47,796 nucleotides of DNA, taken from Bacteroidota bacterium (GTDB lineage Bacteria > Bacteroidota > Bacteroidia > Bacteroidales > FEN-979). The stretch spans positions 1-47,796 of the forward strand of contig QYQJ01000081.1 of NCBI GenBank assembly GCA_007280875.1, read 5' to 3'. Shown in pieces: positions 5,608-38,079 of this stretch. Both the position numbers and the translations under genes were made by a program. The notes below the pieces were generated by a model, which made no database searches, was not told the origin of the DNA, and saw only the letters and a program-made list of their open reading frames with translations. The first letter of the stretch is position 1. Every line of letters starts with the position of its first letter.

Positions 5608-6657
5608 ATGAAACTCACAACCTATAGCACTGATCAGGCCGGGCTGCAAGCGTTTTATGAGGCGATCATCCGCGCTCACGACACCTATGGCCCGGTAGAA
5701 AAATTCGGGAAATTCGATTTCAAAAAGGTGAATTCCCTCTCCGAATGCGATCCTGAGTCTCCGATCCCCCGGACCATGAGCGTGAAACCGCTCTTCTTTC
5801 CCAAGTCGGCAAAGGTGATGAAATATACAGCTACAAGTGCCGGAACCGAACTTTCCGATACCGCAGAGGATCCGCTGGCCGGGAAGCGTGTGATACTGGG
5901 AGTAAAGCATTGCGATGCCCGGGGACTCCAGGTGCTGGACGCGGTCTACAAATGGGATTACATCGATACAGATTACGAGAAACGCAGGGAGAACACCATA
6001 CTGATATCGCCGCGCTGCGACCAGGCTGCCACCCATTGCTTCTGTACTTCCCTCGACTACGACCTGGAAACCCTGGATGCCGTGGATGTGGCGGTAATCA
6101 ATGGGGCCGACAGGAAGATCTACCTGCAGGCACGTACAGAGAAGGGGGAGACCTTCCTGAAGGAAAATGCCACAGGTCTGACATCTGCCAATGGATCGGC
6201 GGAGGCTGAAATGAAAAAGCAGTATGAAACATTTGCTGCCTCATTCCGTCTGAAGATGAACTACCAGGAGATCAACGAACGGATGCAGGGTCAGTTTGAT
6301 TCTCCTACCTTCGAGGAGGTGCCATCCAGCTGTGTCAGCTGCAACACCTGTGCGTTTGTTTGCCCAACCTGTCATTGCTTCAAGATCTCCGACGAGAAGA
6401 TCCGGGATAAGGGGGTCAGGTACAAGAGCTATGATTCCTGTAATAACGTTTATTTCACGCTGATGGCAGGTGGTCACAATCCCAGGCCGGTGAAATACCG
6501 TCGCTGGCGTCAGCGGGCCATGCACAAGTTTGTCTATTACAAGGAGCGGTTTGGAGTGAACTTATGCATTGGCTGCGGCAAGTGCACCACTTCCTGCCCG
6601 GTGAACATCAGCATTTTTGAGGTAGTAACTAAAGTAGCAAGTTCAATGCAGGAATGA
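5608..6657 (+). CDS. flxB: 4Fe-4S subunit, FlxB-like (AsrA/HydB family)
   Basis: GVKHCD, HCFCTS, CVSCNTCAFVCPTCHCF, GGHNPR...R.RQR.MHKF and CIGCGKCTTSCPVNI motifs. Confidence 0.85.
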   Translation: MKLTTYSTDQAGLQAFYEAIIRAHDTYGPVEKFGKFDFKKVNSLSECDPESPIPRTMSVKPLFFPKSAKVMKYTATSAGTELSDTAEDPLAGKRVILGVKHCDARGLQVLDAVYKWDYIDTDYEKRRENTILISPRCDQAATHCFCTSLDYDLETLDAVDVAVINGADRKIYLQARTEKGETFLKENATGLTSANGSAEAEMKKQYETFAASFRLKMNYQEINERMQGQFDSPTFEEVPSSCVSCNTCAFVCPTCHCFKISDEKIRDKGVRYKSYDSCNNVYFTLMAGGHNPRPVKYRRWRQRAMHKFVYYKERFGVNLCIGCGKCTTSCPVNISIFEVVTKVASSMQE

Positions 6658-6735
6658 AGGAATGAAGGAATTTAAAGAAACGTAGATGAGTGATAATTTT
6701 ACCATTTTACTATTTCACCATTTCACTATTTCACT
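6652..6735 (+). repeat. Two 8-mer tandem arrays filling the flxB-flxA spacer
   Basis: GAATGAAG x2+ contains the flxB stop. ATTT(T/C)AC(C/T) x5 at 6696-6735 runs directly into the flxA ATG. Confidence 0.85.
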
Positions 6736-7569
6736 ATGGAACAATTACTAGTCCCCATGATCTGCAAGGTGGATAAGATTATCCAGGAGACCCCGGATAT
6801 CTGCACCTACCGGTTGAAATTCAGGGATGAGTCCCTGACGGAACAATTTGACTGGCTGCCCGGACAATTTATCGAGTTTTCCCTGCTCGGCAGCGGCGAG
6901 TGTACCTTCTGTATTGCCTCATCGGCTACCCGGAAAGGCACCTTCGACTGTTCCATCAAACGGGCAGGGATTGTGACCGCCGACATCCACCGGGATATCG
7001 ACGAAGGGGATGAAGTGGGGATCCGCGGACCTTACGGGAACTGGTTCCCGCTGGAGGATCTGAAAGGGAAGAACCTGCTTTTTGTCGGAGGTGGTATCGG
7101 GTTGGCGCCATTGCGTTCACTGATTCAGTATGCCATTGATAACCGCAATCAGTATGCTGATTGTACCATACTCTATGGGGCCCGTACCTCGGCCGATCTC
7201 TGTTACAAGGAGGAGATCGAAGAGTGGAAAACAAACAAATCCCTGCGGGTCATACTTACCATCGATAAACCGGAGGATACCTGGAAAGAACATGTGGGAG
7301 TGGTCCCGAAAATTCTGGAAGAGGTGGTCAAGCCGAAGGTCGAAAACACCAAGGTCATCACGTGCGGCCCCCCGATCATGATCAAATACACCCTGCTGGC
7401 ACTCGATCGGCTTGGTTTTGCGCCAAAGGATGTGATCACCACACTGGAGATGAAGATGCAATGCGGCCTGGGGAAATGCGGGCGGTGCAACATCGGCAGT
7501 ACCTATGTATGCAAAGACGGGCCGGTGTTCACCTATGAGGAATTGAAGCGTCTGCCGGACGAATTTTAA
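6736..7569 (+). CDS. flxA: FAD/NAD(P)-binding oxidoreductase with [2Fe-2S], FlxA (AsrB/PyrK family)
   Basis: PGQF, GIRGPYGN, GGGIGLAPLRS, CGPPIM and EMKMQCGLGKCGRCNIG..VCKDGPVF motifs. Confidence 0.9.
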   Translation: MEQLLVPMICKVDKIIQETPDICTYRLKFRDESLTEQFDWLPGQFIEFSLLGSGECTFCIASSATRKGTFDCSIKRAGIVTADIHRDIDEGDEVGIRGPYGNWFPLEDLKGKNLLFVGGGIGLAPLRSLIQYAIDNRNQYADCTILYGARTSADLCYKEEIEEWKTNKSLRVILTIDKPEDTWKEHVGVVPKILEEVVKPKVENTKVITCGPPIMIKYTLLALDRLGFAPKDVITTLEMKMQCGLGKCGRCNIGSTYVCKDGPVFTYEELKRLPDEF

Positions 7570-7580
7570 AATAGTTGTAC

Positions 7581-7588
7581 TATCTTTG
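7581..7588 (+). promoter_or_regulatory. -7 promoter box ahead of the small ORF and nuoA
   Basis: TATCTTTG matches the Bacteroidota TAnnTTTG consensus, 21 nt upstream of the ATG at 7610. Confidence 0.6.
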
Positions 7589-7609
7589 TACGTGTAAACC
7601 TGGATTCAC

Positions 7610-7708
7610 ATGGATAAGGAAACAAAAGGAAATTGGATTGTCGTTCTCCCGATCATCGCGCTTGTGATCTTCTTTTGCTTCTGGGTGCTCTCTATGACCA
7701 TAGGTTGA
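7610..7708 (+). CDS. Putative 32-aa single-pass membrane protein (below the ORF-track cutoff)
   Basis: MDKETKGNWIVVLPIIALVIFFCFWVLSMTIG*: charged N-terminus plus one hydrophobic helix, directly behind a promoter box. Confidence 0.55.
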   Translation: MDKETKGNWIVVLPIIALVIFFCFWVLSMTIG

Positions 7709-7745
7709 TATCCCGGGAATGCCCGGATTTTAATCCATCAGAGGT

Positions 7746-8129
7746 GTGGTGACACCTGATTTTTTCCCGGCTGATTATATACCGATCCTCGTCCAGAGTG
7801 TGGTAGCGCTGGGTTTTGTGGTCATCACGATGACCCTGACCCATTTCATGGCAGGGAAACGGAAAAAAATTCACACCCTGCGTAAGGAGGAAAATTTTGA
7901 GTGCGGGATCGAAGTGAAAGGAAATGCCCGGTTTCCCTTCTCCATAAAGTACTTTCTGATCGCCATCCTCTTTGTCTTGTTCGACGTGGAGATCATCTTC
8001 TTCTACCCCTGGGCAATCAATTTCAAAGAATTCGGCTGGGACGGCTACCTGGAGATGCTGGTTTTCCTGTCGTTCCTGTTATTCGGGTTCTTTTATATCT
8101 ATAAAAAAGGGGCCTTCAACTGGGAGTAA
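7746..8129 (+). CDS. nuoA: NADH-quinone oxidoreductase subunit A
   Basis: FECG, KYFLIAILFVLFDVEIIFFYPWA and C-terminal KKGAFNWE; GTG start. Confidence 0.95.
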   Translation: MVTPDFFPADYIPILVQSVVALGFVVITMTLTHFMAGKRKKIHTLRKEENFECGIEVKGNARFPFSIKYFLIAILFVLFDVEIIFFYPWAINFKEFGWDGYLEMLVFLSFLLFGFFYIYKKGAFNWE

Positions 8130-8137
8130 TACAATAC

Positions 8138-8689
8138 ATGGATAAACGATTTCCAAAATATACCAAGGCAGAGCCTCCTGACGGACACACGGGGGCAGGG
8201 TTCTTTGCTACTACGTTCGACAGAGTAATCGGACTGGCACGAAAGAACTCGATCTGGCCACTGCCATTTGCCACTTCCTGTTGTGGCATCGAATTCATGG
8301 CCACGATGGGAGCGCATTATGACCTGGCACGATTCGGATCGGAAAGGTTGAGTTTCAGTCCCAGGCAGGCCGACCTGCTGATGGTGATGGGGACGATCGC
8401 CAAAAAAATGGCACCGGTGGTACAACAGGTCTATATTCAGATGGCAGAGCCCCGCTGGGTACTGGCCATGGGAGCCTGTGCCTCCAGTGGCGGGATATTT
8501 GATACTTACAGTGTATTGCAGGGGATCGATCGAGTGGTGCCGGTCGATGTCTATGTACCGGGTTGTCCACCACGACCGGAACAGGTGATCGACGGCTTCA
8601 TGAAGATCCAGGAACTGGTGGGGAAGGAATCGTTGAGAAGGAGATATTCACAGGAGTATAAAGAACTACTAATGAGCTACGGCATTTAA
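8138..8689 (+). CDS. nuoB: NADH-quinone oxidoreductase subunit B
   Basis: TSCCGIEFMA, SPRQAD, MGACASSGG and PGCPPRPE motifs. Confidence 0.96.
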   Translation: MDKRFPKYTKAEPPDGHTGAGFFATTFDRVIGLARKNSIWPLPFATSCCGIEFMATMGAHYDLARFGSERLSFSPRQADLLMVMGTIAKKMAPVVQQVYIQMAEPRWVLAMGACASSGGIFDTYSVLQGIDRVVPVDVYVPGCPPRPEQVIDGFMKIQELVGKESLRRRYSQEYKELLMSYGI

Positions 8690-8698
8690 AAAGGATAG

Positions 8699-8716
8699 AA
8701 CGCGGATAACGCGGAT
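8699..8716 (+). repeat. 9-mer tandem repeat in the nuoB-nuoC spacer
   Basis: AACGCGGAT x2. Confidence 0.6.
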
Positions 8717-8720
8717 TGAG

Positions 8721-9218
8721 ATGGAGAAAGTAAACTTTATCATCGAAACTCTGAACATACGGTTTGATAAGGGAACCCTTGACATGGATAACTCCTCGGA
8801 TATGCTTACGGTTACGGTGGGAAAGAGCATCATCCATGAGGTGATCCGGTTCCTTAAAGAGGATGAAATGATGGGATTTACTTTTCTGACTACACTTTGC
8901 GGCATACATTTTCCGGATAGCCCGTTACCATTGGGGGTCATATACCACCTCCACAACCTGACGGAAAATCGACGCATCCGGGTCAAAACCTTTGTTCCGC
9001 AGGAATCTCCGCATCTGCCTTCCATCACACCGCTCTTCGCAGCAGCTAACTGGATGGAGCGGGAGACCTTTGATTTTTATGGAATTATTTTTGACGGACA
9101 CCCGAATTTACAACGGATCCTCAACGTGGAATACCTGGATTACTTTCCCCTCAGGAAAGAATATCCCCTGGAGGACCCCACGCGGGAGGATAAAGATGAC
9201 CGCTTTTTTGGAAGATAA
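8721..9218 (+). CDS. nuoC: NADH-quinone oxidoreductase subunit C
   Basis: ANWMERETFDFYGIIFDGHPNL.RIL...PLRKEYP motif. Confidence 0.95.
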   Translation: MEKVNFIIETLNIRFDKGTLDMDNSSDMLTVTVGKSIIHEVIRFLKEDEMMGFTFLTTLCGIHFPDSPLPLGVIYHLHNLTENRRIRVKTFVPQESPHLPSITPLFAAANWMERETFDFYGIIFDGHPNLQRILNVEYLDYFPLRKEYPLEDPTREDKDDRFFGR

Positions 9219-10380
9219 TCACTATACCACCCTCAACCTCGGCCCCACCCACCCGGCTACGCACGGGATATTCCAGAATGTGCTGACCATGGACGGGGAG
9301 GAGATCATTGCAGCGGAGCAGACTATCGGGTACATCCACCGGGCATTTGAAAAGATTGCCGAGCACCGGCCATACTACCAGATCACTCCGCTGACTGACC
9401 GGCTCAACTACTGTTCGGCCCCTATCAATAACCTTGGATATCACATGGCGGTGGAAAAGCTGATCGGGATCAGATCCAACAAACGGGTCGATTACATGCG
9501 GATCATTCTGATGGAGCTGGCCCGTATAACCGATCACCTGATCTGCAACAGCGTGATCGGGGTCGACAGCGGTGCCCTTACCGGGTTTGTATACGTATTT
9601 CAGGAGCGCGAACGGGTGTACGAGATATACGAAGAGGTTTCGGGTGCACGCCTGACAACAAATATGGGACGGATCGGGGGATTTGAACGGGATTTCTCCC
9701 CTTCCGCTATCCGGAAAATACGGGAGTTTCTGGATCATCTTCCGAAGGTTCTGAAAGAGTTTGAAAAGCTGCTGATGCGGAACCGGATCTTCATGGACCG
9801 GACCATCGGCGTGGGCGGGATCAGTGCCGAGCGAGCACTGAACTATGGTTTCACCGGACCGAACCTCCGGGCTGCAGGTGTGGATTACGATGTGCGGGTC
9901 ATGAATCCGTACAGCTCCTACGACGATTTCGATTTCCAGATCCCGGTGGGGACGCAGGGGGACACCTACGACCGGTTCTGTGTTCGCCAGGAAGAGGTGT
10001 GGCAGAGCCTGAAGCTGATCCGCAACGCACTCGATAACCTGCCGGAAGGGGATTACCACATGGAGGTGCCGGAATTTTATCTCCCGCCGAAGGAGGAGGT
10101 CTACGATAAAATGGAGGCCCTGATCTGGCATTTCAAGATCGTTATGGGGGAAGTGAATGTTCCGGTTGGTGAAATTTACCACTCGGTGGAAGCAGGGAAC
10201 GGGGAGTTGGGATTTTACCTGGTGAGCGATGGTGCCAGGGCACCCTACCGGCTCCATTTCCGCCGACCCTGTTTCGTTTACTACCAGGCTTTTCCGGAGA
10301 TGATCAAAGGAGGGGTTTTGTCGGATGCGATATTGACCATGAGTAGTATGAATGTTATTGCGGGAGAGTTGGACGCATGA
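9196..10380 (+). CDS. nuoD: NADH-quinone oxidoreductase subunit D (start re-assigned to ATG 9196)
   Basis: [26 protein letters not shown] and GELDA motifs. The ORF-track extension from 8992 overlaps nuoC and is not NuoD-like. Confidence 0.95.
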
Positions 10381-10946
10381 TCACCCATCGGTTGCATGTC
10401 AAGGAGAACCGACCGGTTGCTTTTTCGGAAGCGACACTGAAAAAAGTGCGCGAACTGATCCAGCAGTATCCGGAGGGGAAACAAAAATCGGCCTTGCTCC
10501 CTGTACTGCATATGGCGCAGGAGGAATTGGGTGGGTACCTGTCGGTGGATGTAATGGATTACGTGGCTTCCCTGCTGCAGCTCAATCCGATTGAAGTGTT
10601 TGAAGTAGCAACCTTCTATTCTATGTTTTACCTTGAACCGGTGGGAAAATATGTGATCGAGGTGTGTCGTACTGCTCCCTGTGCCATCTGCGGAGGGGAA
10701 GAGATTCTTGAGTACCTGAAGGAGAAGTTACAGATCGGTGTGGGTGAGACGACTCCCGACGGACTTTTTACCCTTAAAACGGTGGAGTGCCTGGGAGGTT
10801 GCGGCTATGCACCGGTACTACAGGTGAACACCCAATTTCATGAGCAACTTGATCAGGTGGCCATTGACCGCCTGCTGGATACATTACGTAAACAGGCAGC
10901 CGACCCTTCATCGGCTGATTTGACATGGGCAAGCCAGTTTTGTTAG
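10377..10946 (+). CDS. nuoE: NADH-quinone oxidoreductase subunit E
   Basis: KSALLPVLH.AQ, EVATFYSMF, C..APC and ECLGGC.YAP [2Fe-2S] motifs. Confidence 0.94.
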   Translation: MITHRLHVKENRPVAFSEATLKKVRELIQQYPEGKQKSALLPVLHMAQEELGGYLSVDVMDYVASLLQLNPIEVFEVATFYSMFYLEPVGKYVIEVCRTAPCAICGGEEILEYLKEKLQIGVGETTPDGLFTLKTVECLGGCGYAPVLQVNTQFHEQLDQVAIDRLLDTLRKQAADPSSADLTWASQFC

Positions 10947-12301
10947 AACATATCAGGATTCCGGGGATCCGGCAATTCGGGGTTTACCGGTCACATGGAG
11001 GTTATCGCCCGGTGGAGAAAGCGCTGCTCGAGATGAGTCCCACCGAAGTGGGCCAGGAGGTAACCCGCTCCGGGTTACGGGGCAGGGGGGGGGCCGGTTT
11101 TCCTACCGGGTTGAAATGGAGCTTTCTGAACCGGAAATCGGATAAGCCCAGGTACCTGGTCTGCAATGCCGACGAAAGCGAACCCGGTACCTTTAAGGAC
11201 CGCTACCTGATGGAACATCTACCACACCGGCTGGTGGAAGGGCTGATCGTGTCGAGCTATGCCCTCGGCGTTAACACCTGCTATATCTATATCCGGGGCG
11301 AGTTCAAGTACCTGGTGAGAATTCTGGAACATGCCATCCGGGAAGCAAAAGAAAACGGCTTTTTGGGAGAACGAATTCTGGGAACGGATTTCAGCCTGGA
11401 GATCCATCTCCACCCCGGAGCGGGTGCGTACATCTGCGGAGAGGAGACCGCCCTGCTCGAATCGCTGGAAGGCAAACGGGGCAATCCCCGGATCAAGCCA
11501 CCTTATCCGGCTTACAAAGGATTGTACGATTGTCCCACGGTGGTAAACAATGTCGAGACCCTGGCAGCAGTAGGACCCATCATCAATATGGGGGGAGAGG
11601 CCTATGCCGGGCTGGGGAAAGGGAAAAGTACCGGAACCAAGCTGATTTCCGCCTGCGGCCATATCAACCGGCCGGGTGTGTATGAGATCGAAATGGGCCT
11701 CCCTGTCGAGGAATTCATTTTTTCGGATGAATATTGTAACGGCATTCGCAGCGGCAGACATCTGAAAGCAGTGATACCAGGGGGTTCTTCGGTTCCGGTT
11801 TTGCCTGCCGACCTGATCTTGCGAACAGCGAAAAACGAAAAGCGATTGTTGACTTACGAATCGCTCGAGGAGGGTGGCTTTGACAGCGGGAGCATGCTGG
11901 GATCGGGTGGATTCATTGTCTACGACGAAACTGCCTGCATGGTTCGGAATACCCTGAACCTCACCCGGTTTTACCGTCACGAATCGTGCGGCCAGTGTTC
12001 TCCCTGCCGGGAAGGTACGGGCTGGATGGAGAAGGTGTTGTGGCGGATCGAACATGGTGAAGGGCGATGGAAAGATATCGATCTGCTGGTAAACATTGCC
12101 AGGCACATCGAAGGAAATACAATCTGCCCGTTTGGAGATGCAGCTGCATGGCCTGTAGCCAGCGCCATCCGTCATTTCCGGGAGGAGTTTGAATACCACG
12201 TGGAATACCCCGACGAAGTCAGGGTTATCACACATGGGAATCTGGTCCGGGAGACCCGCTTTACCGGCGGCCATCCCGTATCGGGGATCCGGTTTCGTTG
12301 A
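10925..12301 (+). CDS. nuoF: NADH-quinone oxidoreductase subunit F
   Basis: SGLRGRGGAGFPTG.KW, CNADESEPGTFKDR, GAYICGEETAL and ESCGQCSPCREG motifs. Confidence 0.96.
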   Translation: MGKPVLLEHIRIPGIRQFGVYRSHGGYRPVEKALLEMSPTEVGQEVTRSGLRGRGGAGFPTGLKWSFLNRKSDKPRYLVCNADESEPGTFKDRYLMEHLPHRLVEGLIVSSYALGVNTCYIYIRGEFKYLVRILEHAIREAKENGFLGERILGTDFSLEIHLHPGAGAYICGEETALLESLEGKRGNPRIKPPYPAYKGLYDCPTVVNNVETLAAVGPIINMGGEAYAGLGKGKSTGTKLISACGHINRPGVYEIEMGLPVEEFIFSDEYCNGIRSGRHLKAVIPGGSSVPVLPADLILRTAKNEKRLLTYESLEEGGFDSGSMLGSGGFIVYDETACMVRNTLNLTRFYRHESCGQCSPCREGTGWMEKVLWRIEHGEGRWKDIDLLVNIARHIEGNTICPFGDAAAWPVASAIRHFREEFEYHVEYPDEVRVITHGNLVRETRFTGGHPVSGIRFR

Positions 12302-12312
12302 CAGCGATCCAC

Positions 12313-12392
12313 GTCATTGCGACGAGCGAAACAGGGAGTAAAGTTAACAGAGAGCCGGTGTCATTGCGACGAGCGAAGCGAGGAAGCAAACT
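12313..12392 (+). repeat. Two copies of a GTCATTGCGA-type REP-like element
   Basis: 18-bp direct repeat GTCATTGCGACGAGCGAA at 12313-12330 and 12360-12377; the second copy continues GCGAGGAAGCAAACT. Confidence 0.75.
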
Positions 12393-12401
12393 GTATACAG
12401 T

Positions 12402-13382
12402 ATGGTAAAGGTCACAATAGACAACATCCAGGTTGAAGTCGAAGAGGGCACAACCATCCTCCAGGCAGCGCGAAAAATCGGAGGCAGCGTGGTTCCTCCC
12501 GCCATGTGCTACTACTCCAGCCTGGCTGGTTCCGGAGGAAAATGCCGGACCTGCCTGGTGAAGGTAGCCCATTCGTCGGCCCGGGATCCGCGACCCATGC
12601 CCAAACTGGTAGCCTCCTGCTGCACACCGGTGCAGGAGGGGATGGTGGTGCTGAACCAGACATCCCACGAGGTGGTGGAGGCACGGAAAGCGATCGTAGA
12701 GTTCCTGCTGATCAACCATCCGCTCGATTGCCCTGTGTGCGACCAGGCCGGGGAGTGCGACCTGCAGGATCTGAGTTTCGGTTATGGGCTGGAGGAGACC
12801 CGCTATGAAGAGGACCGCAGGGAGTTCCCGGAAATTGATATCGGACCGTTCATCAAACTGCACATGAACCGCTGTATCCTTTGCTACCGGTGTGTTTATC
12901 TTTGTGAGCAGCTCACGGAGAAGCGGGAGCACGGGGTGCTTTACCGGGGAGATACCTCGGAGATCAGTACTTTTATCAGGCAATCCATCGACAATGAATT
13001 TTCGGGGAACGTGATTGATGTCTGCCCGGTTGGAGCTTTGACCGACCGCACCTTCCGTTTTAAAAGCCGGGTGTGGTTTCTGAAACCGATGGACGTGCAC
13101 CGCGAATGCCCTGCCTGTTCAGGGAAAGCGGTGGCATGGATGTTCGGAGAGGAGATCCAGCGGATCACGGGACGGAAGGACCGGTACGGAGAGGTGGAGG
13201 AGTTTATTTGCAACGAATGCCGGTTTGAAAAGAAAAGCAGGGCTGACTGGGTATTTGAAGGTCCGCGAAAGATTAAACGGCAAAGTGTGATCTCAGCGAA
13301 TCATTACGAGAAGATGAAGAAACCGTCAATTATAAACCCGATAGAAGGTACAATTGAACAGTCTGATAATTCAGAAACATGA
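12402..13382 (+). CDS. nuoG: NADH-quinone oxidoreductase subunit G, short Bacteroidota form
   Basis: MCYY....GKCRTCLV, NHPLDCPVCDQAGECDLQD, RCILCYRCV and DVCPVGAL motifs. Confidence 0.92.
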   Translation: MVKVTIDNIQVEVEEGTTILQAARKIGGSVVPPAMCYYSSLAGSGGKCRTCLVKVAHSSARDPRPMPKLVASCCTPVQEGMVVLNQTSHEVVEARKAIVEFLLINHPLDCPVCDQAGECDLQDLSFGYGLEETRYEEDRREFPEIDIGPFIKLHMNRCILCYRCVYLCEQLTEKREHGVLYRGDTSEISTFIRQSIDNEFSGNVIDVCPVGALTDRTFRFKSRVWFLKPMDVHRECPACSGKAVAWMFGEEIQRITGRKDRYGEVEEFICNECRFEKKSRADWVFEGPRKIKRQSVISANHYEKMKKPSIINPIEGTIEQSDNSET

Positions 13383-13461: not shown

Positions 13462-13475
13462 TAATTGTAGGTGAT

Positions 13476-14498: not shown

Positions 14499-14504
14499 CC
14501 AATC

Positions 14505-15233: not shown

Positions 15234-15257
15234 AAGGCGATCTCGTTTGGTGGGTGG

Positions 15258-25786: not shown

Positions 25787-25795
25787 GATGTAAGT

Positions 25796-27680: not shown

Positions 27681-27683
27681 CGC

Positions 27684-30619: not shown

Positions 30620-30643
30620 GGTAGCTGTCCGCCTGTCCGCCTG

Positions 30644-31105
30644 TTACATGAACCGTTTGATCTCCGCAGCGTGCTCTTTCTCCTCCTCGATGACCTGGTG
30701 GATGAGCCGTTTGGCATTGCTTTCAGTGCGTTTTTCCAGTTCGGTGTAAAAGTCCACACTATCGTTTTCGAACTTGAAGGCGATCCCCAGCGCCTCTTTG
30801 GGGGTTTTGACTGTCTTTGCCAGTTCGGTACCGGCGCCGGCCTTTCCAAAGATGTGACGGTCGGCCAGGTAGTTTATGTAATCATCGGCTTCATCCTGGT
30901 TGAACTCGAATTTTTCAGCCTCGAATTTTTCAGCCAGCTTCTGGAAGATGGCGATGTGCATAACCTCTTTTTCGGCCAGGTCCAGCAGCAATGCTTTGAT
31001 GTCGGTATCGGTTTTCAGCGCCTCGGCAGCAGCCGTGTAAAATGCATAACCGTTCTCTTCAATCCTGACCGCAATTTCAATGATCTCTTGTCCGGAATAA
31101 TACAT
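30644..31105 (-). CDS. Ferritin-like / rubrerythrin-family di-iron protein
   Basis: Two repeats of E..G..FY...E..H (IEENGYAFY...EKEVMH and FENDSVDFY...EEEKEH); no rubredoxin domain. Confidence 0.88.
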   Translation of the reverse strand: MYYSGQEIIEIAVRIEENGYAFYTAAAEALKTDTDIKALLLDLAEKEVMHIAIFQKLAEKFEAEKFEFNQDEADDYINYLADRHIFGKAGAGTELAKTVKTPKEALGIAFKFENDSVDFYTELEKRTESNAKRLIHQVIEEEKEHAAEIKRFM

Positions 31106-31151: not shown

Positions 31152-32936
31152 ATGACTGACCGTACCCAGGAAAAATACTCCTCCGCTTTCACCCTCTCCG
31201 ACATGGAGATCTTCATCTTCCCGGAGCTTCTCTACTCCCTGGTGCTGGCTAATATCCTTTCCCCCGAGATCTGGAAATGGCGGGATGATAAATGGTTCAG
31301 AAAGATCGAAACCCTGCCACCCCTCAAACGGATCCAACGGGTGAAACAGTACATCATGGACCACTACGACTTTAACCTGGATCTGGAAACATGGGGTCTT
31401 ACCGACAAGGAGACCGAGATCAACCGCTTCCGGGAGTTCATAGATCCGGAGGTGCTGAGGCAGTCGAACGCCCTCTTTGGTTATGAGGGAGACAGGTATT
31501 ATTTCGACATCGATATCCGCCGGCATTTCGGGCTGGATAAATACGATACCGACATCATCCCCTACTGGAAAACCGAAACAGTCGAGGCCATGAACGCCTT
31601 CAGGTTTAAACCCGGTCATCCGGTTGGAGCAGGAGAGTGTGTCTCCCTGGCTACCCTCTATGCTGCGGCGTTGTTCATTGTGGCTGGGATTCCCCTGGAG
31701 CAGATCTTCCTGATGGGAACTCCCCTGCACTCACAGAATTATATCCTGGTGGAAGACGGAGTGCTGACCAACAACCGGAGGATCGTAACCAAATCCATGT
31801 GGTACAATGGTACAGAACTTTCCGCTCTCGCCCGCCGGGCGCTGGAACATGAGCAAATCACCATCGTGGCGCACCAAACCGGGTACATCCATTCGGTATA
31901 CCCGGAAGCTACAATTGATCAAGAGGCTTACCGTAGATTCCGGGAATCATTGACTTCGTTCCTGAATATCGGGATGGACTATGAGATCTTTATCAATTTT
32001 CTTCGTTCTTACCACCGGTATCAGAAGTTGTTCCAACTTGTCGTACATTGCCGGGGCTCTGTGAAATACCTTCCTTTGGATAAAGCATTCGGATATGAGC
32101 ATGGGAGCAAAAACCGGCTGGGAGATAAAACTGCCAGGAAACTCCTGTGCGAAATCGGCGATGAGGATTTCTGCTACTGTCCGTTTGAGGATCGTGCCAC
32201 TATCAACGACAAGGACCCACTCTTTCAGCTGAAGCCCTATCCTGATTTTATCCATGAGCTGATGAGCCTCTTTCCGGATCTGGACCCGAACCAGGAACTC
32301 CGGAAAGACCTGAGGCATTTTGTACATACGGTGCCAAAGCTTCCGGGAGGGGAGAAGAGGTATGCTGGAGCACAGGGAACGGAGCACAGGGCACAGGGCA
32401 CAGAGGCACAGGGGCACAGGGGCACAGAGCGAAGGGCATGTGAGGATGGGGTGCTGGGGATCACGACAGCCATGACACGGGAGGAAATCATGGACGCTTT
32501 ACTTAGGGTCGAGGGTCGAGGGTCAAGGGTCAAGGTGAAGGATCCAGCATCCAGCATCCAGCTAGCCTTTTATGCCGGCCGCTTCATGGACTACTGCGAC
32601 TGGACGCCCTTTCTAAAGGCCGCCTTAGAACGAAATCCGGTATCGGTATCTTATTTTAGGGAGAGTGATCTGCAGGAGGTGTTTGCGCAAATGAGTGCAT
32701 GGCCTGATGAATCTATCTACGAAGGGAACCGCCTTGCACTCCCGGATGAGGTGGTCAACTTCGGTCGGGGAGATGGCATAGAAAAGGCCATTACCCTGTC
32801 AAATGTGATCAAAGCCCGCAGCCGGGGAGAGACGATTATGCTGAGAATCGATGGCCGGGAAGTGCATCTGCAGGCATCAGGAGGGAAGTACCATTTCACT
32901 TCAGAAAAACACTTCAAAAAGAACCTGACCCTCTAG
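31152..32936 (+). CDS. Hypothetical protein with transglutaminase-like motifs and two in-frame repeat insertions
   Basis: 594-aa ORF. GAGECVSLATLYAA...LHSQN, and a second motif LPDEVVNFGRGDGIEKAITL that lacks the Cys. Confidence 0.75.
   Translation: MTDRTQEKYSSAFTLSDMEIFIFPELLYSLVLANILSPEIWKWRDDKWFRKIETLPPLKRIQRVKQYIMDHYDFNLDLETWGLTDKETEINRFREFIDPEVLRQSNALFGYEGDRYYFDIDIRRHFGLDKYDTDIIPYWKTETVEAMNAFRFKPGHPVGAGECVSLATLYAAALFIVAGIPLEQIFLMGTPLHSQNYILVEDGVLTNNRRIVTKSMWYNGTELSALARRALEHEQITIVAHQTGYIHSVYPEATIDQEAYRRFRESLTSFLNIGMDYEIFINFLRSYHRYQKLFQLVVHCRGSVKYLPLDKAFGYEHGSKNRLGDKTARKLLCEIGDEDFCYCPFEDRATINDKDPLFQLKPYPDFIHELMSLFPDLDPNQELRKDLRHFVHTVPKLPGGEKRYAGAQGTEHRAQGTEAQGHRGTERRACEDGVLGITTAMTREEIMDALLRVEGRGSRVKVKDPASSIQLAFYAGRFMDYCDWTPFLKAALERNPVSVSYFRESDLQEVFAQMSAWPDESIYEGNRLALPDEVVNFGRGDGIEKAITLSNVIKARSRGETIMLRIDGREVHLQASGGKYHFTSEKHFKKNLTL
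32368..32562 (+). repeat. Two in-frame 7/8-mer arrays inside the 594-aa ORF
   Basis: G(G/A)GCACA-type units at 32368-32440. NAGGGTC x4 followed by (G/C)ATCCAG x3 at 32504-32562. Confidence 0.9.
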
Positions 32937-32958: not shown

Positions 32959-32996
32959 CTGTGCCCCTGTGTCCTGTGCCCCTGTGTCCCTGTGCC
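32959..32996. repeat. CTGTG(C/T)CC array, reverse complement of the in-gene GGGCACAG array
   Basis: CTGTGCCC CTGTGTC CTGTGCCC CTGTGTCC CTGTGCC. Confidence 0.85.
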
Positions 32997-32998
32997 TT

Positions 32999-33782
32999 TT
33001 ATCCCACCATCACAATCCCCCAGGGCTTTGCGGTTTCCCAGGCACTGCGCGTGAAATCGGGAACGGAGACAGCATGGCTGCGGTTCCCGACGGAGATCTC
33101 ACTGAGTTCGACAATGGACGACCCCTTGCTGGAGCCATTTGTGTGCCTCCGGCTCCAGTGCAATTTTCTGGGATGGCCATTTCCGGGCGATTCTCCGGGT
33201 GCCACTCAGCAGGTGGATCCGGCTGTAGGGGCGGGGAGAGGTGGTGTCGTGCTGAATCAGAATGGTCTTTCCGCCGAAGGTGCGTACCAGGGTGGTGGCA
33301 GCAGGCACCTCAACGGCGGCATGCTTTCCGTGGTTCATCGCATACACGGCAATGGGAGTATGCAGCGACCAGGGAGTACAACTGTAGACCAGATCCACAT
33401 CGTCCCGTTCGCACAGCTTCCTCCAGTCGTCCTCTCCGGCCGAAAAACCGGCAGGCTCCTTCCGCCCCTTATCCGTCACAATCTTTTTGGCCTTTGCCAC
33501 CCGCTCGGGAACCATATCGCATACAGCGGAGATCTCTACGCCCTCTGCATTGAGGAGCCTTTCTACCCCCTCCATACCACGCATTCCCACTCCGATCAAC
33601 CCGATCCGGACACTGTTCAGCGGTTCACAGGTGAGCCCCATCACGCTTGGACCCTCCCGGGCAGGCCCGGGAAGCTTCACCGGAGAAACAAAGGTGGATG
33701 CCAGGCCGGTGATATCACTCAGGCTGGCTGCTGCCACGCTGACTGCGGCTGTCTTGAGAAAATTTCGACGGGAGGTTTTCAT
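32999..33782 (-). pseudogene. Tat-exported Gfo/Idh/MocA (GH109-like) oxidoreductase with two internal deletions
   Basis: SRRNFLK Tat motif and IGLIGVGMRG. HAAVEVPAATTL is joined directly to VRT..GKTILIQHDTTSPRPYSR. The family C-terminus SSIVELSEISV.NRS.AV.VPDFTR.AW is in another frame ending at 32999. Confidence 0.8.
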
Positions 33783-33786
33783 GGGT

Positions 33787-33842
33787 TGAAATTTGAAATT
33801 AGGAAATTGAAACCAGGAAATTGAAATCGGGGAATCTGAAAA
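33787..33842. repeat. Degenerate 7-mer GAAATT array
   Basis: TGAAATT TGAAATT AGGAAAT TGAAACC AGGAAAT TGAAATC GGGGAAT. Confidence 0.7.
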
Positions 33843-34010: not shown

Positions 34011-34385
34011 ATGGAAACCAGACAGGAAATTACGTACGATCTCTTGAAGAAATATGGTTCGCGTTGGGCCATTCTTACGGCTATGAGCATGGAACTATCG
34101 AAAAAAGGGGTTTTACTGCCACATGATATTCATAGCATCCTGGAGATCACCCGCATAGAGATCACTTCCGGGTGTTACTCTACCTGCGAGATCGATTGCA
34201 CATTGAATAAAGTAGAAGGAGAACTAATCTCGTCCGGTTCTTCGTTCGGGGAAGCTTACCTGGATCCCTGGATGGATCTGCTGGCCAAAGCGATGCAGGG
34301 TCACCTGGATTATGAACAGATCACCAGCATTCCCGCGCTCAAGCCCGTGGAGAGCTCCTGCGGCTTTCTGCAGTGCGGCTGCTAA
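34011..34385 (+). CDS. 124-aa Cys-rich hypothetical protein (start re-assigned to ATG 34011)
   Basis: METRQEITY...GCYSTCEIDC...SSCGFLQCGC*. The ORF-track extension from 33933 is T-rich intergenic sequence. Confidence 0.75.
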   Translation: METRQEITYDLLKKYGSRWAILTAMSMELSKKGVLLPHDIHSILEITRIEITSGCYSTCEIDCTLNKVEGELISSGSSFGEAYLDPWMDLLAKAMQGHLDYEQITSIPALKPVESSCGFLQCGC

Positions 34386-34484
34386 GTGCTCAGGGCTTAG
34401 GGCACAGGATAAGGCACAAGGCATGAGCCCCGAGCCATGAGATATCCAGGATCCAGTGTCCAGGATCCAGCAATCAGCATCCAG
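34385..34484 (+). repeat. Composite 7-mer array, copy 1
   Basis: AGGGCAC/AGGCACA/AGGCATG/AGCCATG units followed by ATCCAGN units. 34405-34447 matches the reverse complement of 38037-38079 at 41/43 bases. Confidence 0.9.
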
Positions 34485-34492
34485 AATTTATT

Positions 34493-34500
34493 TACTTTTG
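34493..34500 (+). promoter_or_regulatory. -7 box of glyS
   Basis: TACTTTTG, only 4 nt before the ATG. Confidence 0.6.
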
Positions 34501-34504
34501 CTTC

Positions 34505-36025
34505 ATGGCAAGCAACGAGGAACTTTTCCGGAAGATCATTGCCCATGCCAAGGAGTATGGCTATATCTTTCCTTCCAGTGAAATTTATGACGGCCTGAGT
34601 GCGGTTTACGATTACGGCCCCTTCGGTGTAGAGCTGAAGAACAACATTAAAGAATACTGGTGGAAGTCGATGGTTCAGTATCATGAGAACATCGTTGGCC
34701 TCGATACCGCTATCTTCATGCACCCGACTGTCTGGAAAGCCTCCGGGCATGTAGATGCCTTTAATGATCCGATGATCGACAACAAGGATTCCAAGAAACG
34801 CTACCGGGCCGATGTGCTGGTAGAAGATCATATCCTTAAGATCGAGGAGAAGATAGAAAAAGAGGTAGAGAAGGCCTCCAAACGGTTTGGAGACTCCTTT
34901 GATGAAAAGATGTTCAGGGAGACAAATCCCCGGGTGCAGGAGAACGTGAGGAAGATGGATGAGATCAAGCAGCGGTTTTACCCGGCATTGGAATGCAATG
35001 ATCTGGTTGATGTCAAACGTCTGATTGAAGAACTGGGGATCGTTTGCCCGGTATCCGGAAGCCGCAACTGGACCGATGTACGCCAGTTCAGCCTGATGTT
35101 CTCCACCCAGATGGGGTCAGTAAATGAAGATGCCAGCGCCATTTTTCTCCGTCCGGAGACTGCTCAGGGCATTTTCGTGAATTTTCTGAATGTCCAGAAA
35201 TCGGCCCGGATGAAGATCCCCTTTGGCATTGCCCAGATCGGGAAAGCCTTTCGCAATGAGATCGTGGCCCGTCAGTTCCTCTTCCGTATGAGGGAGTTCG
35301 AACAAATGGAAATGCAGTATTTTGTCCGTCCGGGCGAAGAGATGAAATGGTATCAGTACTGGAAGGATGCCCGGATGAAATGGCATCTCTCCCTTGGGAT
35401 ACCGGCTGAAAAGTACCGGTTTCATGACCATGAAAAGCTGGCCCACTACGCCAATGCCGCTGCCGATATTGAATTTGAATTTCCGATCGGGTTCAAGGAG
35501 CTGGAGGGGATCCATAGCCGCACCGATTTTGATCTGGGGGCTCATCAGGAGTATTCAGGCAAAAAGATGCAGTATTTTGATCAGGAATTGAATGAAAGCT
35601 ACATTCCATACGTAGTGGAAACTTCCATCGGTCTCGACCGAACCTTTTTAGCCGTTCTGAGCCAGGCTTACCGGGAGGAGAAGCTGGAAAATGGTTCCGG
35701 GCGCGTGATACTGAGTCTACCGCCCCGCCTGGCGCCGATCAAAGCGGCGATCCTCCCCCTGGTGAAGAAAGACGGGTTACCTGAAAAAGCCCGGGAGGTG
35801 ATGGATGCACTGAAATACGACTACCGCTGCTTCTATGAAGAGAAAGACACCATTGGCCGCCGCTACCGCCGGATGGATGCGTTGGGAACCCCATTCTGCC
35901 TTACCATCGACCACCAGACCCTGCAGGACGACACTGTGACTATCCGGGATCGGGATACGATGCTGCAGGAGCGGATTTCAGTCGAAGAGATTGAAGAGGC
36001 GCTGAAAGAGAAATTAGCGAGGTAG
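34505..36025 (+). CDS. glyS: Glycine--tRNA ligase (alpha2 type)
   Basis: SEIYDGL...YDYGPFG.ELKNN, WKASGHVD.F.DP, LRPETAQGIF, GKAFRNEI, FRMREFEQME and ETSIGLDR motifs; C-terminal anticodon domain. Confidence 0.96.
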   Translation: MASNEELFRKIIAHAKEYGYIFPSSEIYDGLSAVYDYGPFGVELKNNIKEYWWKSMVQYHENIVGLDTAIFMHPTVWKASGHVDAFNDPMIDNKDSKKRYRADVLVEDHILKIEEKIEKEVEKASKRFGDSFDEKMFRETNPRVQENVRKMDEIKQRFYPALECNDLVDVKRLIEELGIVCPVSGSRNWTDVRQFSLMFSTQMGSVNEDASAIFLRPETAQGIFVNFLNVQKSARMKIPFGIAQIGKAFRNEIVARQFLFRMREFEQMEMQYFVRPGEEMKWYQYWKDARMKWHLSLGIPAEKYRFHDHEKLAHYANAAADIEFEFPIGFKELEGIHSRTDFDLGAHQEYSGKKMQYFDQELNESYIPYVVETSIGLDRTFLAVLSQAYREEKLENGSGRVILSLPPRLAPIKAAILPLVKKDGLPEKAREVMDALKYDYRCFYEEKDTIGRRYRRMDALGTPFCLTIDHQTLQDDTVTIRDRDTMLQERISVEEIEEALKEKLAR

Positions 36026-36055
36026 CGAGAAGCGAAATGGTGAGTTTGTGAGTTT

Positions 36056-36805
36056 GTGAAGATAGTATTCCATTGGTTTTTCAGAGCCGGCAAGGTAGCC
36101 CTCCTTTTTCTTGGATCCGTTGCATTGCTGGGAATTATCCTGGCGTTTACCTCGGCGCCGTTCTGGATATGGTACGGACTGGGAACCGCGAACGCAGACA
36201 TCACCCGGACTCCGGATTATATCGTTGTTCTGGGTGGTAGCGGGATCCCCAGTGAAAGTGGACTGATGCGCACCTTTTATGCCGGAATTGCTGCCACGCA
36301 TTTTCCTGATGCCCTGTTGATCGTAGCCCTTCCCGGCGATACTGCCGACAGTTTGAGCTCCATCAGTAAAATGCGGGACGAACTGTTCCTCCGGGGCATC
36401 CCACCGGAACGGATCCTGCTGGAAGACTCAGGGACCAACACACGGGCGCAGGCCATGCTGATCAGGGAACTGGTTCACAATTACGAATTAAGAATGACGA
36501 ATGACGAATTCAACGGCGATTCCCTGACCCTGTTACTGATCACTTCCCCCGAGCACCTCTACCGTGCTGTGCTGGTATTCAGGAAAGCCGGTTTTAAAAA
36601 TGTGGACGGATTGCCTGCCTTTGAATCAGACATTGAATCCGATATTTCCTTTGCTGCTAAGCGGTTGGGTGGCCGCCGCTGGGTACCTGACGTGGGCGAC
36701 AGCATAACCCTTCGCTACCAGTTCTGGACGCAACTGCAGTATGAGATCCTGATCCTGCGTGAATATTTGGCAATAACCTATTATTGGCTGATGGGGTGGA
36801 TCTAA
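36056..36805 (+). CDS. YdcF/ElyC/SanA (DUF218) family protein
   Basis: N-terminal membrane helix, DYIVVLGGSG, ILLEDSGTNTRAQA, LITSPEHLYRA and LREYLAITYY motifs. Start codon uncertain. Confidence 0.88.
   Translation: MKIVFHWFFRAGKVALLFLGSVALLGIILAFTSAPFWIWYGLGTANADITRTPDYIVVLGGSGIPSESGLMRTFYAGIAATHFPDALLIVALPGDTADSLSSISKMRDELFLRGIPPERILLEDSGTNTRAQAMLIRELVHNYELRMTNDEFNGDSLTLLLITSPEHLYRAVLVFRKAGFKNVDGLPAFESDIESDISFAAKRLGGRRWVPDVGDSITLRYQFWTQLQYEILILREYLAITYYWLMGWI
36479..36513 (+). repeat. In-frame 7-mer array inside the DUF218 gene
   Basis: AATTACG AATTAAG AATGACG AATGACG AATTCAA, read as NYELRMTNDEF; same unit family as the arrays at 25752 and 29209. Confidence 0.85.
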
Positions 36806-37359
36806 TTATAGAGATTCATTGCCCGGTCCACTCCCTGAAGCACAAAGCATTGAATCATTTCCACGGCAGCGTTGATCCTGGGGATCAGCACCTTCTCCTC
36901 CTCTTTGGTCCAGCGGCCCAGCACGTAATCGACCTGGTAACCTTTCGCGAAATCATTTCCTATTCCCACGCGCAGCCTTGGAAAATCCATGGTTCCAAGG
37001 GTTTCAATCAGGCTGATCAGTCCGTTGTGGCCGCCGTCGCTCCCCTTTTTCCGAAGGCGTAAGGTGCCCAGGGGTAAGGCAAGGTCATCAACAATCACCA
37101 GGAGGTTCTCCGGGGCAACCTTCTCTTTGTTCATCCAGTACCTGACCGCTTTCCCGCTCAGGTTCATGAAGGTAGTAGGCTTGATCGCAAGGATGGAACG
37201 GCCTTTCAGGTTTCCTTTTGCAACGGATGCCAACCTGCCTGCAGAAAAAGTGGTTCTCAGGGATAATGCCAGCGCATCCGCCACAATAAAACCGATGTTG
37301 TGGCGGGTGTCGGCGTACTCATCGCCGATGTTGCCCAGACCGACGATTAAAAAGTGCAT
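36802..37359 (-). CDS. pth: Peptidyl-tRNA hydrolase
   Basis: LIVGLGN, TRHNIGF, KPTTFMNLSG, DDL.LP.G.LRLR..GSDGGHNG and RLRVGIG motifs. Confidence 0.97.
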   Translation of the reverse strand: MHFLIVGLGNIGDEYADTRHNIGFIVADALALSLRTTFSAGRLASVAKGNLKGRSILAIKPTTFMNLSGKAVRYWMNKEKVAPENLLVIVDDLALPLGTLRLRKKGSDGGHNGLISLIETLGTMDFPRLRVGIGNDFAKGYQVDYVLGRWTKEEEKVLIPRINAAVEMIQCFVLQGVDRAMNLYN

Positions 37360-37361
37360 GA

Positions 37362-37985
37362 TTATTCTTCAGCGGGCTTGCCGGTCTCTCCTTCTGCACC
37401 TTCAGCCGCCTCTTCAGCACCCTCCTCAACATCCTCAACCACTGCTCTGGCAGAACGGACACCGACGACAACATTCCGGGGTGCATCAAGAAATTCAATG
37501 TGGTCGCGAACCAGATTAGAGATCGTAATGGAATCGCCGATATCGAGGTCGGAGATATTGATCTCAATGAAATCGGGGAGATTTTCCAGCAGTGCTTTGA
37601 TCTTCAGTTTTCTGGCTTTCTTGATCAGACGACCGCCGCGAAGAACTCCCTTGGGAGTTCCCGTCAGCTTCACCGGTACAGCGATGATGATCGGTTTGCT
37701 GTCGAATACCTCCAGGAAATCCACATGAAGAATCCGGTCGGTAACCGGATGATACTGCACATCCTGAACCATAGCATGGTGTTCGTTCCCACCGATATTC
37801 AGCCTGATGATGTACACCTCAGGGGTGAAGATAACTTTTGCAAAGAGCTTTTCATCAGTCAGGAAATGGACCTGCTCTTTGCCGCCATACATGACACAGG
37901 GCACTTTCCCCTCCCTGCGTATCTTTCTGGCATCTTTTTTCCCTACGTTCTCTCTGGGAGAACCGCTCAATGATACCTGTTTCAT
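37362..37985 (-). CDS. rplY: 50S ribosomal protein L25 / Ctc
   Basis: GKKDARKIRREGKVPCVMYG, DVQYHPVTDRILHVDF and PKGVLRGG motifs; prs-rplY-pth order. Confidence 0.96.
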   Translation of the reverse strand: MKQVSLSGSPRENVGKKDARKIRREGKVPCVMYGGKEQVHFLTDEKLFAKVIFTPEVYIIRLNIGGNEHHAMVQDVQYHPVTDRILHVDFLEVFDSKPIIIAVPVKLTGTPKGVLRGGRLIKKARKLKIKALLENLPDFIEINISDLDIGDSITISNLVRDHIEFLDAPRNVVVGVRSARAVVEDVEEGAEEAAEGAEGETGKPAEE

Positions 37986-38016
37986 AATAGGTTTGTGTTT
38001 TGGTTTAACCGAATGC

Positions 38017-38079
38017 GATCCCGGATACCGGATGCCGGATATCTCATGGCTGGTGGCTCATGCCTTGTGCCTTATCCTG
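38017..38079 (-). repeat. Composite 7-mer array, copy 2, in the rplY leader
   Basis: Minus strand reads CAGGATAAGGCACAAGGCATGAGCCACCAGCCATGAGATATCC, then NATCCGG units. It lies downstream of the -7 box TACCTTTG at 38097-38104. Confidence 0.9.

Follow-up and report, generated by a model that had tools for sequence, protein, structure and literature searches.

We analysed a 47,796-nt contig of a Bacteroidales genome of the lineage FEN-979 (QYQJ01000081.1 in assembly GCA_007280875.1), in which short tandem arrays of 7–11-nt units occupy gene junctions and in several cases supply a start or stop codon. The whole contig (C24 of the genome, which we call G000) is referred to as the window. A first-pass annotation had read these arrays as scars or non-autonomous forms of a poorly described mobile or repeat-writing system. 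We regard it as somewhat probable that they belong to a lineage-specific, genome-wide population of short tandem repeats, of the kind described as short tandemly repeated repetitive (STRR) sequences or long simple-sequence repeats, which are built like the arms of small gene cassettes carrying a PF05635 (four-helix-bundle) or PF13366 (GxxExxY) gene, and that the arrays in the window are gene-less members of this population. Comparison of orthologous junctions shows that (i) cassettes decay to a one-armed array or a gene-less hairpin, (ii) a change in one arm of a cassette is matched in the other and (iii) the gene inside may differ while the arms stay.

We determined the excess of arrays in the whole assembly (3.03 Mb, 232 contigs, 88% complete) with Tandem Repeats Finder (TRF). 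At a score of at least 30, 1713 merged loci were obtained, compared with 402, 403 and 415 in three dinucleotide shuffles. By period, 673 loci have 7-nt units (40–50 in the shuffles), 253 have 8-nt units (58–72) and 234 have 9-nt units (52–77), with a small excess at 10 nt (138 vs. 78–92) and 11 nt (90 vs. 45–58); most 9-mer arrays lie in coding DNA. Typically, a unit of 7 bases, or less often of 8–11, is repeated ~3–6 times per array. Arrays of period 7–11 with a score of at least 40 occupy 6.1% of intergenic and 0.44% of coding bases (~14-fold), and an array of period 7–11 is present in 385 of 1362 spacers of at least 20 nt, a number that falls to 35 when each spacer is shuffled. The window has 34 junctions, 19 of them with gaps of at least 20 nt, and 12 of these 19 gaps contain an array. 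Genes were called crudely as longest open reading frames (ORFs; 91% coding), which missed nuoC and the low-GC island of the window; start-codon distances and counts of arrays inside genes are therefore rough.

Arrays lie preferentially on the 3′ side of genes, and many start at the stop codon. This preference follows from the distance between array and stop codon, which is at most 3 nt in 160 of 522 cases (31%) and in 12.6% after random placement in the same spacer (2.4-fold), and from the occupancy of spacers, which is highest between convergent genes (20/70, 43/83 and 18/39 in three length classes) and lowest between divergent genes (0/38, 26/141 and 38/106). The enrichment at intra-operon junctions that the first-pass annotation had proposed to look for does not emerge, since arrays are not special to such junctions. 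Nor does its description of units that degenerate towards the array edges extend to the genome: in 470 period-7 arrays (score of at least 40, indel-bearing arrays dropped; 302 with at least four units), identity is 0.915 for first, 0.899 for last and 0.922 for middle units. In-phase heptamers flanking the arrays are at background identity (0.27–0.30), and the array edges are sharp. A mode of the copy number near 4–5 was considered as a constraint on the arrays and rejected; TRF misses perfect heptamer arrays below ~3 copies, and the mode is therefore uninformative.

The link to four-helix-bundle and GxxExxY genes, which the first-pass annotation had mentioned, holds true in G000 and its genus, where inverted arms enclose most of these genes. 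PF05635 carries the family name '23S rRNA IVS protein', and PF13366 is PD-(D/E)XK-like. G000 has five PF05635 and three PF13366 matches. Inverted heptamer arms flank three of the five PF05635 genes on either side; a fourth, at a contig end, shows a single arm and the fifth none. All three PF13366 genes have inverted 8–11-mer arms. In nine of the same-genus sister species (G001–G010), 40 PF05635 loci were inspected: 34 have arrays on both sides, six on one side and none on neither, and all 34 pairs are inverted. The periods of these arms are 7 (41 arms), 8 (24) and 9 nt (9). For PF13366, both arms were recognised by eye in 13 of 15 matches in the genus. The arms are whole arrays of 3–16 units, and like many single arrays the cassettes follow directly on a stop codon at gene junctions. 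In the predicted RNA of one G000 cassette (C162), the arms pair over ~33 bp around the entire gene. A truncated PF05635 ORF of G000 (C117) lies between inverted AATGCAGG arms, the same unit as in the window array at 6645. In agreement with the first-pass annotation, the window itself contains no match to PF05635 or PF13366, either in a profile search or in the Pfam comparison of 41 ORFs by which its gene names were checked.

A conserved motif of the form TATAACCTTTT-N11-GGATTAATG lies just 5′ of genes of both cassette families (PF05635 and GxxExxY) in G000, and some dozen other genes have it in the same position (for example at C52:11363, C101:2732, C117:20268, C152:9958, C33:3645, C35:26338, C113:5049, C173:21268 and C173:24675). 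The ATG that ends it often looks like a start codon, and the motif looks like a dedicated promoter or leader.

Single arrays and cassette arms have sequence in common in part. We compared the two in two ways: matching of consensus units gave few matches, matching of exact 12-mers gave many. An exact 12-mer common with the sampled sister-species arms was found in 267 of 896 G000 arrays (30%), compared with 23–42 (3–5%) of unit-shuffled arrays. In the window, 8 of 19 arrays have 12-mers in common with arms, namely those at 6645, 8699, 32370, 32959 and 33786 and three AATTACG arrays. The array at 6645 has 12-mers common to four sister-species cassettes, the array at 8699 to an arm of a sister-species GxxExxY cassette (L287; L-numbers denote individual loci in relatives), that at 25752 to the arms of one sister cassette (L280), that at 32370 to the arms of L256 and that at 33786 to L283. 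No 12-mer match to the sampled arms was obtained for the array at 6696–6737, the hairpin at 13381 and the array at 24839–24886.

Many units recur across the genome. The commonest, AATTACG, has 44 loci, of which the window contains three; it is followed by AACTGCC (30 loci), ATCCGGC (23) and ACCCTCG (23). A further 34 arrays of 10/11-mers form one family, ATTGC[AG]CATGR / ATTGCCATG, to which the nuoI/nuoJ array of the window belongs; by reading, ~19 of the 34 begin directly behind the stop codon of a co-oriented upstream gene and two behind tRNA genes. The sampled arrays of same-genus genomes are mostly of the same families, which other genera use much less. At three sites of G000 (C51:1508-1607, C210:8827-8901 and C178:1677-1801), two ATTGCACATG-family arrays face each other between converging genes, each behind the stop of its own gene, and together they form a hairpin that resembles a two-way terminator.

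Alignment of orthologous junctions in relatives had been set beforehand as the refuting test, and both filled and empty alternatives exist, so that the refutation fails. The purC/degT junction was found in 10 of the 11 genus genomes and adopts four states: a cassette in four genomes, a one-armed array in three, an unrelated gene-less hairpin in one and an empty site in two. In G000, G001, G004 and G008, the cassette carries the same PF05635 gene between AATTGAY arms, and the first unit gives the purC stop. G005, G006 and G007 have a direct TAATTCR x5 array alone, G002 has the hairpin, and in G009 and G010 the genes are separated by 17–20 nt without an array. We derived the polarity of these states from a two-gene and a five-gene tree (the latter with 1818 columns), as a single-gene DegT tree was too weak. 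G009 and G010 diverge earliest in the five-gene tree; G005, G006 and G007, with one arm each, fall into a 100/100 clade with the cassette-bearing G008, and the cassette bearers G000, G001 and G004 lie outside this clade. The one-armed trio is nested among cassette bearers, and the simplest reading is therefore that the one-armed state at purC/degT is derived, through loss of the gene and of one arm. Branching within the 100/100 clade is weakly supported.

At htpG/lemA (loci L203–L212), a cassette is present in seven species, G003 has an ACGTCTC x4 array alone, corresponding to one arm, and G010 retains one or two units per arm as a mini-hairpin before a T-run, its sister G009 carrying a cassette. 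Three PF05635 lineages are found at this one site. ACGTCTC arms enclose lineage A in G000 and G004 and lineage B in G005, and ACCTCTC arms enclose lineage A in G009 and lineage B in G007, which suggests that the gene was exchanged inside resident arms. Where both arms are in view (G000, G009 and G008), there are three differing unit pairs, each of them complementary; the stem is thus conserved. The four-state junction within one genus, its tree polarity, the gene swap in kept arms and the 12-mer sharing test are new here.

We further compared the junctions of the window itself. At glyS/DUF218, an array lies directly behind the glyS stop in 8 of 9 sister species: units of the CGAAATA type, still visible as a remnant in G000, are present in five, 8-mers in G008, ATCCAGT in G010 and (by reading) only a short TGATGTGC pair in G003. 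G006 has a plain hairpin. No array is present at this junction in four other genera (G012, G013, G014 and G015), and gene-less 8-mer hairpins occupy it in G011. At flxB/flxA, G000, G002, G004, G006, G007, G011 and G024 retain the pair (AATGCAGG)n ... (ATTTCACY / ATTTCGCT)n, G007 with a different unit, ATATTCACG, in the second array. The second array occurs alone in G005, G016 and G022, and GC-rich hairpins or short empty gaps are found elsewhere; counting G000, 10 of 23 genomes have ATTTCACY / ATTTCGCT arrays here. The nuo junctions of close relatives are empty or contain other arrays, and nuoM/nuoN in relatives is empty or carries other arrays, a gene-less hairpin (L021) or a PF05635 cassette (L095). 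Among 80 Bacteroidota loci, a PF05635 gene with inverted arms resides in a nuo gap in five (J/K twice, F/G, D/E and M/N).

Other small genes are found in nuo gaps as well. In other Bacteroidota (L026, L028, L030, L039, L043, L047, L089 and others), ORF6N-domain genes, an MNT/HepT pair, a zeta-toxin-like gene and DUF2750, RlaP and TonB-C genes occur there. In general, junctions of the complex I operon appear to be sites where small genes of a selfish or accessory kind gather.

The reading as scars or non-autonomous forms is supported at purC/degT and htpG/lemA, where cassettes decay to one arm or a hairpin, and is not supported for the window arrays as a whole. Several observations weigh against an origin of all arrays as scars and against the reading that we prefer. 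No cassette was found at glyS/DUF218 in 14 relatives, nor at flxB/flxA in any of 22 relatives, though the double array persists there across genera. Inverted same-unit pairs within 3 kb number just 33 among 1486 arrays, more than 95% of which are single. The arm units are very diverse, and only 12 of 74 sampled arms fall into G000 families of at least five loci, though these families hold 51% of the G000 arrays. Sharp array edges fit a slow decay of larger elements poorly, the promoter-like cassette motif is found in none of the window arrays, and the polarity of the decay is derived from two junctions and a tree with partly weak inner forks. Cutting of paired arrays by RNase III could occur, as argued solely by analogy. 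The proposed check of array density against cassette copy number gave a divided answer: density rises with that of PF05635 genes (Spearman 0.62 over 21 relatives), which is weak support because the genomes are kin, yet G000, with the highest array density measured, has only five PF05635 matches in its 88% complete assembly of 232 contigs.

The arrays might instead be simple-sequence repeats born of slippage, arising locally and independently, with cassettes gaining their arms likewise or landing on arrays, so that the link to the genes is incidental. We consider this possible but rather unlikely. Heptamers dominate, as reported for many bacteria (PMC4679880, citing Mrazek 2007), and according to a slippage model attributed to Mrazek and colleagues, seven bases fit the replication machinery. 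Local slippage would also account for the predominance of single arrays, for arm units that are mostly private to a cassette, for small copy numbers that drop fast above ~4 and for orthologous arrays that differ by whole units. It leaves unexplained, however, (i) the recurrence of a unit at tens of loci and also in sister species, together with the 34-array family of 10/11-mers, (ii) the sharp edges and the excess of arrays that begin at a stop codon, (iii) the 9-fold excess of 12-mers common with cassette arms and (iv) the swap to an unrelated unit at one site, as in G010 and G008 at glyS/DUF218. Contigs from three other samples that are near-identical to the window (compared over 6000–25999) span the arrays at 6645–6737, 8699–8716, 13383–13418 and 24839–24886 gap-free, and the absence of length differences at these four sites likewise speaks against slippage, bearing in mind that contigs drop rare variants. 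At two window arrays, contigs of other samples end or branch.

An undescribed cassette-exchange system is a more speculative and, in our view, unlikely explanation. Inverted arrays behind stop codons would then serve as portable sites, of the recombination or the hairpin type, at which PF05635 and GxxExxY genes would be inserted, swapped and lost; one-armed arrays would be half-sites or leftovers, and the cassette proteins would make, copy or maintain the arrays. If such a system existed, it would provide a source for the unexplained heptamer repeats (STRR and similar) of many bacteria. A 'writer' based on a reverse transcriptase was considered and rejected: G000 has one partial RVT_1 match (C75:4613-4897, profile positions 1–97 of 205), which has no tie to the arrays. 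A promoter-like motif of the cassette type follows this match at 4925.

Selection on the arrays as cis-acting elements, i.e. as unstructured mRNA spacers or protein-binding sites that set the translation, coupling or stability of neighbouring cistrons, is quite improbable. It would fit the conservation of the same two unit types at flxB/flxA in different genera (FlxA-like identity 81–92%), the position of arrays directly behind stops and before starts, and the orientation of several families to transcription (12 sense and 1 antisense for AAACCCG, 12 and 0 for AAAAGCG, 4 and 16 for ACCCTCG); a translational role has also been argued for the TAACTGA repeats of Beggiatoaceae in the account of MacGregor (2015, PMC4679880). 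The same junctions, however, are empty or carry unrelated sequence in sister species, the neighbouring genes have no common theme, the same units also occur in protein loops and as cassette arms, and the figures for the distance to start codons are weak because gene starts are unreliable. Phase variation, in which gain or loss of units switches neighbouring genes on and off, is very improbable. Unit lengths that are not multiples of three and arrays that touch start codons are as expected for contingency loci, but the contigs of other samples, from which rare variants drop out, cover four array sites without a gap, the neighbours are housekeeping genes (nuo, glyS and rplY), divergent and thus promoter-bearing spacers are the least occupied, and in-gene arrays are kept in frame.

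In the reading that we prefer, a population of short tandem repeats built like cassette arms, some window arrays may be true remnants of cassettes: the nuoG/nuoH hairpin and the AATGCAGG, AACGCGGAT and GCACAGG arrays, the units of the latter three serving as cassette arms elsewhere. Others would belong to high-copy gene-less families (AATTACG and ATTGCACATGR). Once in place, arrays would be long-lived, changing by turnover of units and by whole-unit steps and being kept in frame in protein loops. A single array would act as a largely unstructured spacer that operons tolerate, and an inverted pair would fold into a long stem that RNase III, the gene of which is present in G000, could excise from the transcript as in rRNA intervening sequences.

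Heptamer-rich repeats have been known for decades in cyanobacteria, Xanthomonas, Beggiatoaceae and some Bacteroidetes, and we know of no agreed origin or role. The genus studied here gives a concrete and testable link: between its arrays lie two small-gene families whose function is unknown, one of which (PF05635) was first seen in rRNA intervening sequences. If this link is true, the source of part of these repeats is explained, and PF05635 and GxxExxY genes gain a biological setting. STRR is the name of such repeats in heterocystous cyanobacteria. Long simple-sequence repeats with 5–11-nt units form a wider class (Mrazek et al. 2007, in the summary of PMC4679880). Both resemble the present arrays in their tandem direct units of 5–11 nt, with heptamers commonest, in their mostly intergenic position, in having few units at many loci and in their sporadic occurrence among lineages with an unexplained origin. 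Unit lengths, excess over composition, intergenic bias and recurrence of units at many loci were all found here. In contrast to STRR sequences, several dozen unit families coexist in G000, arrays begin preferentially at stop codons, many lie in frame in genes, and small gene cassettes are enclosed by arrays as their inverted arms.

Direct repeats of the heptamer TAACTGA have been described in Beggiatoaceae, cyanobacteria and five Bacteroidetes (MacGregor 2015, PMC4679880). In the description given there, they are likewise intergenic sets of 2–6 heptamers that often abut starts and are mixed with other heptamers, close strains differ by 7-nt steps, sites are empty in relatives, and Bacteroidetes are among the carriers. 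That system, as described, has one unit that is mostly forward and just 5′ of starts, whereas here many units and a bias to the 3′ side are found; TAACTGA is not among the top 50 G000 units listed. The intervening sequence (IVS) in the 23S rRNA of Coxiella burnetii, which contains an S23p/PF05635 gene, has tandem GACAGAT heptamers in 2–3 strain-variable copies at its stem (Warrier et al. 2016, PMC4990558). According to that report, the stem is cut by RNase III with the heptamers at the cut site, and its authors deem the element selfish. Like the ORF-bearing IVS described there, the PF05635 cassettes enclose a small four-helix-bundle gene in inverted repeats that pair into a long stem. The cassettes differ in that they lie between protein-coding genes rather than in rRNA, the window holds gene-less arrays only, and RNase III cutting would apply to them by analogy; the window has no PF05635 or PF13366 gene, and except for two pairs its arrays in 6000–39000 are single.

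Repetitive extragenic palindromic (REP) elements, with their doublets (REPINs) and REP-associated tyrosine transposases (RAYTs), and miniature inverted-repeat transposable elements (MITEs) are also similar in that few gene-carrying elements are flanked by repeats that are far commoner without the gene. REPs are single palindromes and RAYTs are recognisable transposases, whereas movement of DNA is not known for PF05635 or PF13366 proteins; the repeats described here are tandem arrays and mostly one-armed. Both inverted ends around a short interior, as expected of MITEs, are rarely present (33 pairs among 1486 arrays). Within the library used, a literature search returned no paper that ties dispersed arrays to PF05635/GxxExxY cassettes at protein-gene junctions; only the Coxiella IVS paper and a review of diversity-generating retroelements turned up.

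All arrays that the first-pass annotation had placed at 12 named junctions were recovered with their unit lengths by TRF and direct reading; coordinates refer to the plus strand unless stated otherwise. Two arrays separate the flxB-like and flxA-like genes: (AATGMAGG) x3.4 at 6645–6671, the second unit of which contains the flxB-like stop (TGA, 6655–6657), and (ATTTYACY) x5.2 at 6696–6737, which reaches the flxA-like ATG at 6736. An array of (AACGCGGAT) x2 lies between nuoB and nuoC (8699–8716). Inverted-repeat finding revealed a gene-less hairpin between nuoG and nuoH (13381–13461), formed by (ACACAGAAT) x4 at 13383–13418 and an inverted copy; it begins at the nuoG stop and overlaps the nominal nuoH GTG. 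Its predicted RNA fold has an energy of −35 kcal/mol (z −6.5), and none of 200 shuffles is equally stable. By eye, its units look like the ACACAGATT arms of the GxxExxY cassettes L286 and L292, with no exact 12-mer match. TRF and direct reading further gave (GAATTGCACAT) x4.5 between nuoI and nuoJ (24839–24886), (AATTACR) x4.6 between nuoK and nuoL (25752–25783) and (GAATTAC) x5.6 between nuoM and nuoN (29209–29247), where the nuoN ATG (29246) consists of the last two bases of the array and one G. Between nuoN and the convergent ferritin-like gene, which was assigned by Pfam, lies (CTGTCCGC) x2.5 (30625–30644).

The three array stretches within genes (32370–32438, 32505–32562 and 36479–36510) had been missed earlier. 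In a gene of 594 codons, (GCACAGG) x9.4 at 32370–32438 is in frame (residues 407–429), as are (AGGGTCR) x4.4 and (ATCCAGC) x3 at 32505–32562 (residues 452–471). Both stretches sit in the same loop of the protein and are inserts relative to the orthologue in G015. An array 3′ of this gene, (CTGTGCCC) x4.9 at 32959–32996, is inverted relative to that at 32370–32438 and lies 528 nt from it. A reading of this pair as a cassette was rejected, since the stretch inside it encodes the conserved C-terminus of the 594-aa protein and the pair therefore encloses no cassette. It and the nuoG/nuoH hairpin are the only paired inverted arrays in 6000–39000, all other arrays there being single. The third in-gene stretch, (AATTACG) x4.6 at 36479–36510, was found in frame by TRF in a loop of the DUF218 protein (residues 142–152, NYELRMT...). 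Sister species have NYELRIT, the translation of AATTACG x3, or similar inserts of varying length in this loop, which is short in G015 and G014.

TRF also located a (GAAATTN) array at 33786–33841, directly 5′ of the start of a minus-strand GH109 remnant; an array of this type lies at the start of the GH109 gene in five sister species. The glyS leader (34390–34475) consists of successive heptamers with changing units, the last of which is (ATCCAGG) x3.9 in the TRF array 34444–34470; this run of heptamers is missing in G003 despite the same flanking genes. Between glyS and the DUF218 (ydcF) gene, at 36026–36059, a remnant CGAGAAG CGAAATG is followed by (GTGAGTTT) x2.5 (36040–36059), identified by TRF and direct reading, and the sole in-frame start of the DUF218 gene, GTG at 36056, comes from the third GTGAGTTT unit. 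The flxB-like stop, the nuoN ATG and this GTG thus lie in or straddle a repeat unit as the first-pass annotation had stated, and so does the flxA-like ATG; the ferritin-like stop, which it had also included, overlaps its array by one base only. Because start codons, stop codons and in-frame inserts in loops derive from arrays, gene callers are misled.

On the minus strand, the rplY leader (38017–38079, TRF) contains (GATRCCG) x3.6 at 38017–38041 and a heptamer composite that it has in common with the glyS leader. Aligned over 34386–34507 (plus strand) and 37983–38116 (minus strand), the composite extends over ~65 nt with ~88% identity, counted by hand from the alignment, and has the same orientation relative to the downstream gene. 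Either a composite array has been duplicated from one locus to the other, or the two translation genes have a leader element in common.

A small ORF at 34011–34385, just upstream of glyS, was considered as a candidate cassette gene; the arrays between which it lies are not inverted, and its family is a different one. It is Cys-rich, matches PF23100 (DUF2096 N-terminal four-helical bundle, E 1e-7), a family that differs from PF05635, and is found upstream of glyS only in G000, G002 and G003 among 10 genus species. The GH109-like gene (33099–33782, minus strand) is a 227-aa remnant. Gene content between the 594-aa gene and glyS varies among the species of the genus, and the region is lined with arrays.

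Pfam places an hdr/flx-like block at 762–7569, nuoA–H at 7746–14498 and nuoI–N at 24259–30619; the nuo operon (7746–30619) is interrupted by four genes on the opposite strand (14505–24116). Downstream of nuoN follow the ferritin-like gene, the 594-aa gene without a family, the GH109 remnant and the small DUF2096_N-like ORF, and further downstream glyS, the DUF218 gene, pth, rplY, prs and rpoD. NuoM of the window has no orthologue among 10 same-genus genomes, which contain only a paralogue with 31–32% identity; short N-terminal NuoM fragments lie near glyS in G001, G005 and G006. Orthologues with 59–69% identity are present in other genera of the family, and the closest named NuoM loci are from uncultured Bacteroidales bins. 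The end of the window (40321–47796) is a low-GC stretch (38–42% vs. ~51%) that starts at a tRNA-Leu(CAA) and encodes a Schlafen-like helicase, an AEP-TOTE primase-helicase fusion and an integrase-like fragment; it is probably an integrated defence island.

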